Shown: piece by piece, positions 10,411 through 19,618 of the stretch
Layout of the letters: the number at the start of each line of letters is the position of its first letter
Numbering within the stretch: position 1 is the first letter of the stretch
Assembly: GCA_008632985.1 (NCBI GenBank)
Contig: QPGO01000117.1
Coordinates: 246,671 to 266,670, forward strand
From: Psammoneis japonica
Lineage: Eukaryota
Direction of reading: 5' to 3'
Length of the DNA stretch: 20,000 bases
Notes under the pieces: generated by a model
What the model was told of the DNA's origin: nothing
Database searches by the model: none
What the model saw: only the letters and a program-made list of their open reading frames with translations
Program-made: the position numbers and the translations under genes

Positions 10411-13400
10411 ATGGTATCTTTCAAAATCGCTGCGGCTGCGCTTCTATCCGCTGGGACTACTACAGCGTAAGTCAAGGATTTGGATGGATCGGTGTTGATT
10501 TTCTCGTTGTTTTTTGCCATCGTCTCGGTGTGTCGGCTCGAGCGGTGTGCGATCACAAATTGAACTTGAAGTTGAGAGCGTAGAATTCTACGTGTTCTGG
10601 TACAAAGTCGATCCTCGTACAAATCTACGACTGACCGAGAAAATGCCGACCAAGAGGGGACCAGCGAGAAAACCGTCGTCTTTTCATGCTGTAGCTTGAA
10701 ACGATGAACTTACCTACTATTTTGCTTCCTCCTTTAACCATGTGATCTTGTTACAGATGGCAGTCAGGTGTCCCCTCGTTTGTGTCGACAAAGAGCATCC
10801 AGCGTTCTGCGGTGGCGAGGAACACACTCTACCAAAAGAAAGCAATTAAGAAATCGACTTCGTCGTTGTCAATGGTTGTTTCAGATCCTACTTCTTCAGG
10901 AGGAATGTTCACAGCCACCAATGCCGAAAATCGTCGTGTTGTTCCTGAGGATGTTCGTGGACGCCCAAAGATGAAGGTCGTCTACGTTGTTCTTGAGAGT
11001 CAGTACCAGTCTTCCATGACGGCGGCCGTCAAGAGAATCAACGCCGGTTCTGACAACATGGCTGTTGAATGTGTTGGTTACCTTCTCGAAGAACTCCGGA
11101 ATGACGAAGCCTACGAACAATTTAAGAAGGATGTCGAAGAAGCAAACATTTTCATCGGATCCCTCATTTTCGTTCAAGAGCTCGCAGAGAAAGTTATCGA
11201 CGTCGTCAAGCCCAGACGTGATGATCTCGACGCTGTTCTCGTCTTCCCCTCCATGCCCGAAGTTATGCGTATGAACAAGGTTGGAAGCTTCACAATGAAG
11301 AACTTGGGACAATCCAAGAGCGTCATATCCGATTTCATGAAAAAGAAGAAATCCGAAGACGGTTCGTCGTTCGAAGAAGGCATGCTCAAGCTTTTGCGCA
11401 CCCTTCCCAAGGTGCTCAAGTTCCTCCCCAGTGACAAGGCTGCGGATGCCCGTACCTTTATGATGTCCTTCCAATACTGGCTTGGAGGGTCGCCTGAGAA
11501 TCTCGAATCCCTTCTTATGATGGTTGGACAGGATTACGTCGACCCCATCAAGAAGGCCATGGAGGGCAAGGAGAAAGTCGTTGCCGAGGAACCAGTCCTC
11601 CTCCCTGACAAGGCCATCTGGCACCCTGTTGCTCCTCAATTGTCTTCGAGAATAACCAGAAGTACTTTGAGTGGTACAACAACGAATTCTGTCCCGAGGC
11701 TGGTATCGACCCCAAAACCGCCCCTACTGTCGGAATTATTCTCCAGAAATCCCACATCAACACTAAGGATGACACCCACTATGTTTCTCTCATCTCTGAA
11801 CTAGAAAGCCGAGGCGCCCGAGTTGTTTCAATCTATTCCGGTGGACTGGATTTCTCTGGACCCGTGGAAGAATTCTTCTACGATGCTTCTGGAAAGTAAG
11901 TCGCTGCGTCTTTCTTGGGCTCAACATGCTTGCGACATTCTCACTCATTGGAATCGCGTTTTTTGTTTAGGCCTATCGTCGATACGGTTATCAACCTTAC
12001 TGGATTCGCCCTCGTTGGTGGCCCGGCTTCGCAGGACCACGAGAAGGCATCTCAGGTTCTCAAAAAGCTCAACCGCCCTTACATGTGTGCCGTCCCGCTC
12101 GTTTCCAGTCGTTTGAAGAATGGCAAGCATCTGAGTTGGGTCTTCACCCCATCCAAGTCGCTCTCAGGTTTCGCTTCCTGAGATCGATGGTGCTATCGAG
12201 CCCATTATCTACGCTGGACGTGAAGGCGCCACCGGACGCAGTGTTCCTCTCGCTGACCGAGTCAACCTTCTTGCTGATCGTGCCATGAAGTGGTCGGCAC
12301 TTCGCAACAAGCCTACCCAGGATAAGAAGATTGCCATTACCATCTTCTCCTTCCCGCCCGACAAGGGTAATGTCGGAACCGCTGCCTACCTTGACGTGTT
12401 TGATTCCATCAAGGCTGTTTTGAAGCAGCTCAAATCCGAGGGATACGATATCGGTGATGCTCCAATGGGCAAGGAGGAGATCATGGAGGCCGTTCTTAAT
12501 GATCCGGAGGCACGAATCTCTTCGCCCGAGCTTAATGTTGCTTACCGCATGAGCACTGATGAATATTATGAGTTGACACCCTATGCTACTGACCTCGAAG
12601 AGAACTGGGGACCGGCTCCAGGCAACCTCAACTCTGACGGACAGAACCTTGTTGTGTACGGAAAGCAATTCGGAAACGTCTTTATTGGTGTGCAGGTACG
12701 TAAATATCCAGGTGTCGATTATTATACCCGCGTGTCCCCGCAATCGTTTCTTAACCTTTCGACTAATTTCTGTTTGAATACAGCCATCCTTCGGTTACGA
12801 GGGTGACCCAATGCGTTTGTTGTTTGCCAAATCGGCGAGCCCACACCACGGTTTTGCCGCGTACTACACGTACCTTGAGAAGATTTTCAAGGCCGATGCA
12901 GTCTTGCACTTCGGAACCCACGGAAGTTTGGAATTCATGCCCGGAAAGCAGGTCGGTATGTCTGGAACATGCTACCCTGATCGTTTGATTAACTCGTTGC
13001 CGTCGGCCTACCTCTACGCCGCCAACAACCCATCCGAGGCAACCATTGCAAAGAGACGTTCTTATTCCGCCACCGTGTCCTACCTCACGCCACCCGCTGA
13101 GAATGCTGGTCTTTACAAGGGACTAAAGGAATTGAAGGAATTGATCTCCTCTTACCAGGGCTTGAGAGAGAACGAAGGTCGCGGCCCAGCGATCGTGAAC
13201 TCCATTGTGTCAACAGCATGGACGTGCAACCTCAATGCTGATATCGATGATCTTCCAGATCTCGAAAGCTATGATGCCAAGGATGACACACCCGAACGTC
13301 GTGATGAAATTGTCGGAAAGGTTTACGCGCAAATCATGCAGATCGAAAGTCGTCTGCTCCCGTGCGGTCTTCACACGTTGGAGTCCCCCCACCGCAGAAG

Positions 13401-15083
13401 AGGCCGTCGCTACGCTTGTCAACATTGCCCAGCTCGATCGTCCTGAAGATGAAATCGAGGGATTGCCTCGCGTCATTGCTGCCTCTGTTGGCAGAGAAAT
13501 CAACGAAGTTTACCGTGGAAACAACGCAGGTGTCCTCGAAGATGTCGATTTGAACACCAAAATCGTCGACGCATCTCGTGCGGCTGTTCGTGCCTTGGTT
13601 GACCAGTCCACCAACACCGACGGCCGTATCAAGGAAGTGAACGCCCTGTTTGATGACGTAGGTAACTTCCTTGAAAAGATGAGTGGAAAGAAGAAGCCCT
13701 GGACACAAGCGATCATTGATGCTGGATTCCCCGACGTCAGCGAGGAGCGCTTGACTCCGGTCATCAAATACTTGGAGTTTTGCCTCAAGCAGATTGTCGC
13801 CGACAACGAACTTGGCGGAATCATGGAGCTTCTCAATGGTGAATTCCTCATGCCCGCTCCTGGTGGAGACCCCATTCGTAACCCCGCAGTTCTTCCTACC
13901 GGACGTAACATGCACGCCCTCGACCCATCTGCCATCCCGACCTCCGCTGCCGTTGAAGTGTCACAAGACGTTGTCAGGAAACTTCTCGAGAAGCTTTCAG
14001 AAGAGAACGATGGCGAATATCCCGAGAGCATCGCCTTCACCCTATGGGGTACTGACAACATCAAGACCTACGGAGAGTCACTCGCTCAGGTTCTTGCCCT
14101 CGTTGGCGTGAGACCCGTTCCCGATTCTCTTGGACGTGTGAACAAGGTTGAACTCATTCCTTTGGAAGAGCTTGGTCGCCCTCGTATCGATGTCGTCGTG
14201 TCTTGTTCCGGTGTGTTCAGAGATTTGTTCATCAACCAGATGAACTTGATGGATCGTGGTATCAAGATGGCTGCCGAAGCCGATGAACCGCTTGACCAGA
14301 ACTTTGTCCGCAAGCACGCTGTTGAGCAAGCCGAAGAGCTGGGTGTAACACTCCGTGACGCCGCTTGCCGTGTTTTCTCCAACTCTGCTGGATCCTACAG
14401 TGCCAATGTTGGACTTGCCATCGAGAATGGTGGTTGGGAAGACGAAAGCCATTGCAGGATCAGTTTTTGACTCGCAAAGGATTTGCCTTCAACGCCGATA
14501 AGCCCGGAATGATGGAGCAACAAGCTGATTTGTTCAAGTCTGCATTGAAGAAGGTTGACGTGACTTCCAGAACTTGGACTCTTCCGAAATCTCTATCACC
14601 GACGTCTCGCACTACTACGACTCTGACCCTACCAAGGTTGTTCAGGGTCTTCGTGACGACAAGAAGAAGCCCATGTCTCTCATGGCTGATACCACAACTG
14701 CTAATGCCCAGGTTCGTACCTTGTCCGAGACAGTCCGTCTTGATGCGCGTACCAAGCTTTTGAACCCCAAGTTTTACGAGGGTATGCTTTCTACCGGTTA
14801 CGAGGGTGTGCGAGAGATCCAGAAGCGTCTCCGCAACACCATGGGCTGGTCTGCAACGGCCGGAGAGGTCGATAACTTTGTCTTTGAAGACGCCAACGAA
14901 GTGTTCATTGACGATCCCGAGATGCAACAAAGGCTTCTCGATACCAACCCCAATGCTTTCCGTGACATGGTCACTACCTTCTTGGAGGCCAACGGAAGAG
15001 GATACTGGGAAACTTCCGAAGAGAACATTGAGCGCTTGCAGGAGCTCTATGCTGAGGTCGAAGACCGTATCGAGGGAGTATAA
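10411..15083 (+). CDS. chlH: Magnesium chelatase subunit H, plastid-targeted (introns 10467-10756, 11896-11970, 12696-12783)
   Basis: Motifs [117 protein letters not shown] and [13 protein letters not shown], ending [11 protein letters not shown]. Exon 1 encodes the signal peptide [19 protein letters not shown], followed by WQSG and an S/T/K/R-rich transit peptide. Indels near 11640, 12101, 12164, 13377-13390, 14451 and 14567. Confidence 0.97.
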
Positions 15084-18193: not shown

Positions 18194-18901
18194 ATGAAGA
18201 ATGCGTGTATATTGTGGACAGGAGGCAAGGACTCCATGATGGCTTTGATCAGGGCTCGGGAGCGTTACCACATTATTTGCCTCGCCACCTTCGAGCCCAA
18301 GCCGGAAAAAGCGTTCCTCGCTCATCCGCAATCCATCATCGAAGCCCAAGCAAAAGCTCTGGGCATTGAGCACCGCTTTCTTTCCGTCTCGGAACCATTT
18401 TCAGAATCCTATGAAGAAGCAATCGATAAGCTTGCGGCTGCTGGAATCCAAGTCCTCGTCACCGGTGATATGGATCGTGTGGATGGTCACGAAAATTGGA
18501 TTGCACAACGAGCTCGAAATGTAGTAGAGGTTGACTTACCGCTGTGGAATGCAGATAGGAAACAAATTCTCTCTAGCCTCATTTCGGATCATTGTATTCG
18601 AGCCGTTTGTACCTTGACACGAGCCGATGCATTCGAGGAATGCATTGTCGGGAGAGAGCTTGACGAAACTCTCGTTTCAGAACTGTGTCGGCGGCATGGA
18701 AGAGAGGGCTTTGACGCTTGCGGTGAAAACGGAGAGTATCACACGGCTGTGTTATGTGGGCCAGGATTCGCATATGGTTTGCATTTGAGAGGGGCTAGAG
18801 TTGCGTGCACTGGATCATACCGCCACCTCAACTTTGACGCAGTTGAAACATCAGCTGAACGCAAGTCGATACAAGACAAAACTAACGAAACACAAGAATA
18901 G
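18194..18901 (+). CDS. Diphthine-ammonia ligase (Dph6)/MJ0570-like N-type ATP pyrophosphatase, prokaryote-like form
   Basis: Intronless 235-aa ORF with PP-loop WTGGKDS, AQAKALGI, LVTGDM, PLW, VGRELD and DACGENGEYHTAVLCGPGF. Confidence 0.88.
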   Translation: MKNACILWTGGKDSMMALIRARERYHIICLATFEPKPEKAFLAHPQSIIEAQAKALGIEHRFLSVSEPFSESYEEAIDKLAAAGIQVLVTGDMDRVDGHENWIAQRARNVVEVDLPLWNADRKQILSSLISDHCIRAVCTLTRADAFEECIVGRELDETLVSELCRRHGREGFDACGENGEYHTAVLCGPGFAYGLHLRGARVACTGSYRHLNFDAVETSAERKSIQDKTNETQE

Positions 18902-19024: not shown

Positions 19025-19312
19025 TTAACGGGCGCGTTGACGCATCTTCCTCCTCTTTCTGCGAAGACGACGCATGCGCTTCTTCTTCCACTTCTTACGC
19101 ATACCGCCATTTGCTTCAAGAAGCATGGTGATGGTGTCATCCTCTTCCACACCATTGGCAGCAAGAGAGCCGCCCTCGAGGGTCTGACGACCATTGACCA
19201 ACTTGATCTGGGAACTAGGAACGAATTCCTTGTTCTCAATCAAAGTCTTGAGAGTCTCAACCGACGCATCGGCATCGACCGTGTAAGCCGTTGATCCGAC
19301 AAAAATCTGCAT
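19025..19312 (-). CDS. RPL41: Ubiquitin-like domain (70 aa) fused to ribosomal protein eL41 (25 aa)
   Basis: MQIFV...LLEANGG is followed directly by [25 protein letters not shown] and TAA. The tail matches human eL41 ([25 protein letters not shown]) at 20/25 positions. One uninterrupted frame. Confidence 0.93.
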   Translation of the reverse strand: [95 protein letters not shown]

Positions 19313-19352
19313 AGTACTATGAACGCTTTTCAACAACTTGGTTGCTCGAAAC

Positions 19353-19618
19353 CTGGCAAAGAATAGAACGACAAAGAAAAATCAAATCACGTCAGAAATA
19401 ACATGCCACGGATGCGCTAATAACCTGTACTCTACAATCCCGATTGACACGAACGAAAGGAGACGAGGGAACGTAACGACTTCAGAACGTCCTCCAGAAA
19501 AAAATGACGGAACCGTCGCCACAGCTTGCATTGGCAACGACAATAATGACGTGGATCAGGTGAGTACGCGGGAGAAACGCCCGCGGACAGCGACGCAGCG
19601 ACGCCATTGTCGTCTTAC
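19353..19618 (-). other. Probable 5'-UTR intron of the UBL-eL41 gene
   Basis: On the minus strand: donor GTAAGA at 19618, branch-like TTCTGAC, a long pyrimidine tract and acceptor TTTGCCAG ending at 19353, 40 nt upstream of the ATG. The donor choice is less certain than the acceptor. Confidence 0.55.

Follow-up and report, generated by a model that had tools for sequence, protein, structure and literature searches.

The 20,000-nucleotide stretch of DNA analysed here (the window) carries its organism's gene for ribosomal protein eL41 (eS32), and this gene is built as a precursor in which the N-terminal half is an acidic, degenerate derivative of ubiquitin, a ubiquitin-like domain (UBL). In ochrophyte stramenopiles, eL41 genes commonly take this UBL-eL41 form, which is conserved. 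The original prediction had described a 95-aa ORF consisting of a 70-aa UBL and a complete, Met-starting eL41, and had proposed that this was a further type of precursor akin to Ub-eL40, Ub-eS31 and FUBI-eS30. Translation and Pfam analysis confirmed this arrangement with exact coordinates (Table 1), and the proposed precursor type was borne out by an in-frame gene, its conservation in relatives and a predicted beta-grasp fold. Homologues of the fused frame and prediction of a beta-grasp fold had been named in advance as checks, and both came out in favour of the prediction, as detailed below.

Table 1. Features of the UBL-eL41 gene in the window, and intact UBL-eL41 genes on giant-virus-type contigs
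Feature	Position	Strand	Basis
UBL-eL41 precursor, complete coding sequence, 95 codons + TAA	19025..19312	-	Translation, 614 homologues of like architecture
UBL, 70 aa, net charge -7	19103..19312	-	AF2 fold, Foldseek, phmmer
Junction G69-G70 / M71, presumed cleavage site	19100..19108	-	G70 121/121, M71 121/121
Complete eL41 (= eS32), 25 aa, net charge +18, predicted single helix	19028..19102	-	PF05162, solved chains, AF2
TAA stop of the UBL-eL41 ORF	19025-19027	-	Translation
5' leader (tentative)	19313..19354	-	Metatranscriptome contig of a close relative, mixed sample
Intact UBL-eL41 gene, dense intron-free giant-virus-type contig	L084:10001-10231		
Intact UBL-eL41 gene, likewise	L002:150-446		
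Intact UBL-eL41 gene, likewise	L003:590-886		
Intact UBL-eL41 gene, likewise	L073:2974-3267		
Intact UBL-eL41 gene, likewise	L001:10001-10303		
Intact UBL-eL41 gene, likewise	L066:2956-3252		
Intact UBL-eL41 gene, likewise	L076:3001-3297		

The UBL-eL41 gene and its spread

Residues 1-70 of the translated ORF start with MQIFV and end with TMLLEANGG. An in-frame stop lies 23 codons upstream of the ORF, the Met of MQIFV is the first ATG past that stop, and the gene has no intron. No other eL41-like or MQIFV-like frame was found in the 20-kb window. The eL41 half scored 30.2 bits with Pfam Ribosomal_L41 (PF05162; cut-off 22.3, E 4.3e-07), residues 71-93 corresponding to profile positions 1-23 of 25, and it aligned end to end with solved 25-aa eL41 chains (26 distinct chains matched, best E 1.9e-05). 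In the AF2 model this half formed one long helix (residues 71-94), and across the fused sequences the net charge of eL41 was +17 or +18. The matched PDB chains are 22 to 41 aa long; nine distinct sequences, from other lineages, have 8-16 additional N-terminal residues, and chains of 33-41 aa have 9-16 of them.

Two further genes were recognised on the plus strand of the window. A Mg-chelatase H gene (CobN/Mg_chel, DUF3479) at 10782-14467 is spread over at least three ORFs, i.e. it contains introns, and a 235-aa ORF with a diphthamide-synthase domain (PF01902, E 1.2e-24) at 18194-18901 is convergent with the eL41 gene. On the basis of the split Mg-chelatase H gene and the diphthamide-synthase-domain ORF, the window appears to be nuclear DNA from a photosynthetic eukaryote. 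The stop codons of the diphthamide-synthase-domain ORF and the eL41 gene are 123 nt apart on opposite strands, so the 3' ends of both transcripts must be tightly packed.

RNA sequences came from one metatranscriptome run (0.15 share of words, 85% likeness), which contributed only short contigs of relatives. One contig of 156 nt, from a relative in this mixed sample, aligns to 19199-19354 with 3 mismatches and 3 gaps. The one contig spanning the junction, also from a relative, has 26 nt on the eL41 side against a threshold of 31 nt, and we therefore claim no transcript for the window organism. Two loose contig ends at 19102 read ...LSVPAG before the eL41 Met upon translation by hand, which would be the UBL tail of another relative.

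A word-seeded search with the window protein gave 629 candidates, 614 of which matched at E<=0.01, and the best 120 of these 614 all contained PF05162 in proteins of 80-136 aa. Searches from more distant members of the family gave 511/524 and 999/6018 matches at E<=0.01. The diatoms among the sources were both pennate and centric (Fragilaria, Nitzschia, Seminavis, Epithemia, Cyclophora, Discostella, Stephanodiscus, Cyclotella and Cyclostephanos). Other named sources were Parmales, the brown algae Choristocarpus and Scytosiphon, the raphidophyte Heterosigma, and the chrysophytes/synurophytes Mallomonas, Epipyxis, Chromulina, Hydrurales and Paraphysomonas. One match was from a 'Mesodinium pulex' transcriptome and may derive from prey. 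A protein-atlas search added one further cluster with known members mostly from Oomycota, which we take as a lead only. Many of the matches are 'type:complete' ORFs in transcriptome assemblies of cultured algae, and the fused frame is therefore present on mRNA in those cultures. Database names of family members included '60S ribosomal protein L41', 'ubiquitin' and 'hypothetical protein'; the name 'small subunit ribosomal protein S27Ae', given to many members in one source, is a mis-annotation of UBL-eL41.

An uninterrupted UBL-eL41 ORF was present at the matched place in 71 of the 83 loci that we fetched (61 with the strict pattern and 10 with a variant eL41 tail). The other 12 loci comprised four in which likeness to eL41 was lost after 7-9 residues, five exon fragments and three cases of true ubiquitin. 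In a diatom-type relative, a 94-nt GT-AG intron (L004:1750-1843) lies inside the eL41 codons, after codon 7, and its removal restores the frame; this position places the UBL and the first 7 eL41 codons in one exon. A downstream eL41 exon was found for L004 only, and none was found for L005/L006 and L031. Five proteins of 99-124 aa (P0165, P0203, P0206, P0227 and P0237) appear to be gene calls extended through an intron of this kind.

HMMER searches of all libraries with the UBL alone gave 782 matches at E<=0.001, the top ones being polyubiquitin with 26-35% identity per unit. Among the 150 matches listed, 12 were single-stretch matches with more than 50% identity, and all 12 belonged to the UBL-eL41 family. 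Ten of these run on into eL41 (four complete, one with an in-frame unspliced intron, and five that break off after 7-9 residues), and two diverge directly after GG. One of the latter, P0264, differs at 1 of 75 residues from the UBL of locus L047, which continues straight into eL41. No free copy of the UBL and no other fusion partner was found among the matches listed.

In a tree of 87 rows and 100 columns, the window protein fell within a diatom clade of 49 rows (support 98/89). Its sister was a Cyclophora tenuis transcript protein with 81% identity (support 100/86), and this pair grouped with a Fragilaria crotonensis protein and locus L007 (support 97/78). The ubiquitin outgroup was placed on a long branch inside the tree, beside brown-algal sequences. 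With this placement and too few columns, we draw no conclusion from the tree on the origin or monophyly of the UBL.

An acidic relative of ubiquitin

The Pfam ubiquitin family (PF00240) matched residues 9-66 of the window protein with 23.5 bits (E 4.9e-05), slightly below the cut-off of 25.4, and is present in the precomputed annotation of some relatives. phmmer aligned UBL residues 6-70 to ubiquitin 10-76 (E about 1e-4). AF2 modelling on a 70-sequence alignment (pLDDT 91.1, pTM 0.74) gave strands at residues 2-5, 8-11, 36-40, 43-45 and 60-65 and a helix at 18-29, which is the strand-strand-helix-strand-strand-strand order of a beta-grasp. Foldseek comparison with the PDB returned ubiquitin chains as the top matches (E about 1e-6, TM 0.83-0.92 by target length, rmsd 0.9-2.7 A), with an identity to ubiquitin of about 28% (24-32% over the Foldseek matches). 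The 70-aa form has a shortened beta1-beta2 hairpin; centric diatoms and brown algae have a 75-aa form with 5 more residues there, and the shortened loop is the one that bears L8 in ubiquitin.

The window UBL lacks near-identity to ubiquitin with its LRLRGG tail, K48/K63 and L8-I44-V70 patch. In the UBLs of the family, E, D or A stands where ubiquitin has R72, mostly A or S in place of K48, and E or D in place of K63; the patch positions I44, H68 and V70 are variable, and most UBLs have one or two lysines. The tail reads E/D-V-x-G/A-G, without the LRLRGG of ubiquitin. The residues that are invariant or near-invariant in 121 sequences (Y10, S17, K22, I25, E26, N27, E29, F30, P32, L38, G48, L50 and G70) map mostly to the helix and core of ubiquitin (K22=K27, I25=I30, P32=P37, L38=L43), not to its binding patch.

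Charge and junction were tallied in a set of 315 fused sequences, defined as stored proteins of at most 200 aa in which an eL41 tail could be recognised and a Met lay 66-82 residues ahead of it. This left out 159 of 474 stored proteins, which were polyubiquitins or truncated or intron-bearing gene calls. The UBL was acidic in 315/315, with a net charge of -4 to -14 (mean -8.7), and a ubiquitin unit taken from a polyubiquitin match had a net charge of 0.

Purifying selection acts on the UBL. In close pairs of loci the dN/dS of the UBL was 0 to 0.28 (L024/L032, 0; L049/L050, 0.04; L026/L028, 0.09; L008/L011, 0.12; L041/L044, 0.25), and the viral pairs L002/L003 and L003/L073 gave 0.13. For the UBLs of the window and L007, dN was 0.28 and dS 1.46. 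Across 448 pairs with dS of 0.05-1.5 the median dN/dS was 0.39 and the maximum 1.17; the high values come from cross-lineage, saturated or AT-biased pairs, and we therefore relied on the close pairs alone. The eL41 part had a median dN/dS of 0.10 (720 pairs).

The last Gly of the UBL was present in 121/121 of the closest (diatom-type) sequences and in 315/315 of the fused set, and Met followed it in 121/121. The residue before this Gly was G in 63, A in 53, S in 4 and V in 1 of the 121 closest sequences, and G in 248, A in 60, S in 5, V in 1 and T in 1 of the 315; it was C in L066 and D in L069/L071. The original prediction had the two halves joined via Gly-Gly. Since the residue before the last Gly varies, this describes the window and not the family, and the C-terminal di-glycine that is conserved in conjugated modifiers is present in the window protein without being a family trait. 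Locus L056 (1107-1421) and protein P0282 carry the junction twice (...VNGGMRGGMRGKWKKK...), so that two candidate Gly-Met sites lie in tandem.

Giant-virus-type contigs

That giant viruses themselves encode UBL-eL41 genes is likely but unproven, because metagenomic binning can err. In a viral contig collection, four loci had intact UBL-eL41 ORFs, 98-100 aa in length, and three of the contig names carry the prefix of giant-virus metagenome-assembled genomes. The contig of locus L084 is 24% GC and 83% coding, without introns, with genes for topoisomerase II, a protein with the minor capsid P8 domain (PF19065), a class II aminoacyl-tRNA synthetase and flavodoxin. Locus L073 has the flavodoxin neighbour in common with L084 and also an Rpb3/11-like subunit; L001 lies with genes for XRN, RFC-like ATPases, DnaJ and thymidine kinase; and both L066 and L076 are flanked by thymidylate synthase and a kinase. 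These assignments come from 47 of the 53 ORFs of at least 120 aa on the virus-type contigs, the six left out being antisense, overlapping or of low complexity.

In the tree, the viral label changed at least three times on well-supported branches, and the genes on virus-type contigs fell into at least three distinct clusters. A UniRef 'viral metagenome' protein belongs to the main viral clade, as do proteins on contigs of up to 170 kb. The top 50 matches of a BFVD fold search were viral ubiquitins and UBLs over 72-88 columns, and no named virus with UBL-eL41 was among them.

Genes related to ubiquitin were also found beside the fusion. On L001, a UQ_con E2 gene (L001:10365-10823, E 1.5e-50) lies about 60 nt downstream of UBL-eL41, which may be chance. 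The AT-rich loci L069 (3001-3237) and L071 encode canonical ubiquitin with two extra residues (MF), and a 95-aa UBL-eL41 with an Asp-Gly junction lies within 3 kb of this ubiquitin gene.

Proposed processing and comparison with known fusions

We consider it probable that UBL-eL41 is a cleaved precursor in which the UBL serves eL41 in cis as a chaperone or expression aid. The UBL would fold first, raising the yield of eL41 in cis and masking its charge. Without the UBL the ORF would have 25 codons, and its product would be too short to emerge from the ribosomal exit tunnel; with the UBL the ORF has 95 codons, and part of the +18 charge of eL41 would be offset. A deubiquitinase-like or ULP-like protease may then cut after the invariant last Gly and free eL41 with its own Met; since the tail is not basic and Ala often precedes the last Gly, this protease need not be a classic deubiquitinase. 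The freed eL41 would enter the 40S/80S interface at bridge eB14, and the UBL would form no part of the ribosome.

The original prediction had offered two roles for a free UBL, modifier or chaperone, of which the chaperone would be the better fit. Conjugation of the freed UBL via its C-terminal Gly, by an E1/E2 of its own and as a lineage-specific modifier, seems unlikely to us. It would accord with the last Gly in 315/315 and GG in 248/315, with a beta-grasp that is closest to ubiquitin by Foldseek, and with the E2 gene next to the fusion on virus-type contig L001; FUBI, too, has been discussed as a modifier. However, 67/315 sequences, and 58/121 of the closest ones, have A, S, V or T in place of the penultimate Gly. 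The position of R72, which in ubiquitin is needed for E1 recognition, is E, D or A, K48 and K63 are missing, the patch positions vary, and the conserved residues are those of the core. E2 genes are common in giant viruses, and the E2 neighbour on L001 may therefore mean nothing. A Lys-poor, acidic UBL without R72, K48 and K63 thus favours a cleaved precursor with a UBL acting in cis over a new conjugated modifier.

That the UBL stays attached to eL41 and forms a lineage-specific addition to the ribosome at the subunit interface appears improbable. Cleavage is a step that we infer, deubiquitinases might be unable to process the non-canonical junctions (A-G, S-G and D-G), and some solved ribosomes contain eL41 with extra N-terminal residues; given these extensions the eL41 N-terminus is not sealed, which weakens the steric argument. 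The position of eL41, however, argues against keeping a folded acidic domain there: according to PMC13485352 it lies in bridge eB14, between h44 and h45 at the subunit interface and close to the decoding centre. A folded 70-aa domain with a charge of -7 to -14 would face rRNA phosphates at this site. In addition, an invariant Gly-Met junction next to an untouched 25-aa eL41 resembles a site of cleavage, and no solved eL41 chain is longer than 41 aa (26 chains).

The invariant Met at the start of eL41 would fit internal initiation as well as a cleaved precursor. Separate initiation, with eL41 made mostly from its own Met by leaky scanning or from a shorter transcript and the UBL frame being an independent or regulatory upstream product, is nevertheless very improbable, since both halves occupy a single frame without stop or linker in 315 sequences, including the viral ones. 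The intron inside eL41 at L004 also ties both halves to one exon, and full-length fused ORFs occur in transcriptome assemblies. What would speak for separate initiation is Met71 in 121/121, and also that, to our knowledge, the ribosomal protein keeps no Met of its own in the classic ubiquitin fusions. The depth of RNA contigs peaks over eL41 too, although contigs of many organisms fall on this most conserved stretch and their depth is no measure. As far as we know, Met-Arg is not a substrate of methionine aminopeptidase and mature free eL41 keeps its Met; since this Met is kept anyway, its invariance has a simpler cause than separate initiation. A chance ORF or an assembly artefact, with nothing in its favour, was ruled out by the conservation, the selection, the Pfam match, the AF2 fold and the intact loci of relatives.

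The basis for asking why ribosomal proteins are fused to ubiquitin has so far consisted of three cases, Ub-eL40, Ub-eS31 and FUBI-eS30. UBL-eL41 is a fourth, independent and lineage-wide case, and thus a natural test, with the smallest and most basic ribosomal protein as partner. A UBL without the signalling features of ubiquitin, yet with its fold, its last Gly and a strong negative charge, points to a selected function in expression or chaperoning in cis, not in ubiquitin supply. We lean slightly towards a broader reading, in which UBL-eL41 is an old obligatory module that is common across ochrophytes, and probably also found in oomycetes and at least one haptophyte, with the acidic UBL as a dedicated in-cis chaperone and at least three uptakes by giant viruses. 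If this is true, eukaryotic viruses have eL41 as their second known ribosomal protein, and eL41 requires its UBL half wherever it is carried. The structure of this gene also has practical weight. The promoter and terminator of the L41 gene drive constitutively high expression in diatom engineering, as reported in PMC5124317, and its true structure therefore matters to users of these elements.

The fusion itself is not unknown, as it has an entry in a review table. The architecture 'ubiquitin~Ribosomal_L41' is given for one protein, Emiliania huxleyi R1FF22, in Tables S1/S2 and the text of Martin-Villanueva et al. 2021 (PMC8122580). Novelty, which the original prediction had left dependent on earlier reports, accordingly does not extend to the architecture, already in print there. 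R1FF22 is a haptophyte protein of the same Pfam architecture, compared here by its architecture entry, and is termed 'anecdotic' in that review, the accessible text of which is silent on diatoms, a divergent UBL, a variable junction and viruses. A 2024 review repeats the Emiliania huxleyi sentence (PMC11354881), and 'L41' does not occur in the text of a 2019 survey of ubiquitin fusions in algae (PMC6332867). We found no further description of the fusion in the searchable full-text literature, including PMC4111850 and PMC6156597. Nor did this literature contain an account of how widely the fusion occurs in the lineage, of its acidic UBL as a distinct family or of the variation at the junction.

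In the viral setting, the known counterpart is eL40. FloV-SA2 and metagenome-assembled genomes encode eL40, which was presented in 2024 as the first ribosomal protein of a eukaryotic virus (PMC11499249). This case, in which giant viruses encode a small eukaryotic ribosomal protein normally fused to ubiquitin, resembles that of UBL-eL41 on virus-type contigs. In the accessible text of PMC11499249 eL40 is the sole case and 'L41' does not appear, so that a virus-borne UBL-eL41 would be a second case and would extend the eL40 finding.

Free eL41 genes of 25 codons, as in yeast, plants and animals, encode the same 25-aa product without a UBL. The fused gene has the architecture of a fusion precursor: its N-terminal beta-grasp ends in Gly and is followed directly, in frame and with no linker, by a small basic ribosomal protein. 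Ub-eL40 and Ub-eS31 (UBA52/Ubi1-2 and RPS27A/Ubi3) likewise have an N-terminal beta-grasp in one piece with a small basic ribosomal protein. However, they carry true ubiquitin that feeds the ubiquitin pool, whereas the UBL of UBL-eL41 is about 28% identical to ubiquitin and is without R72, K48, K63 and LRLRGG; and eL41 retains its own Met, unlike the partners in Ub-eL40 and Ub-eS31. For Ub-eL40, the ubiquitin moiety is reported to be required for productive eL40 expression (PMC6721733).

FUBI-eS30 (FAU) of holozoans shares with UBL-eL41 a diverged, linker-free UBL that ends in Gly and stands ahead of a small, very basic 40S protein. In the protein-atlas search, FUBI-eS30 clusters ranked next after the UBL-eL41 clusters (scores 0.88-0.89), a lead only. 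FUBI is cleaved from eS30 and missing from the mature 40S subunit, as described in PMC8354635. The two systems differ in partner (eL41, not eS30) and in lineage (stramenopiles, not holozoans), and the UBL of UBL-eL41 is shorter (70-75 aa), is always acidic, and has a second-last Gly that is not conserved.
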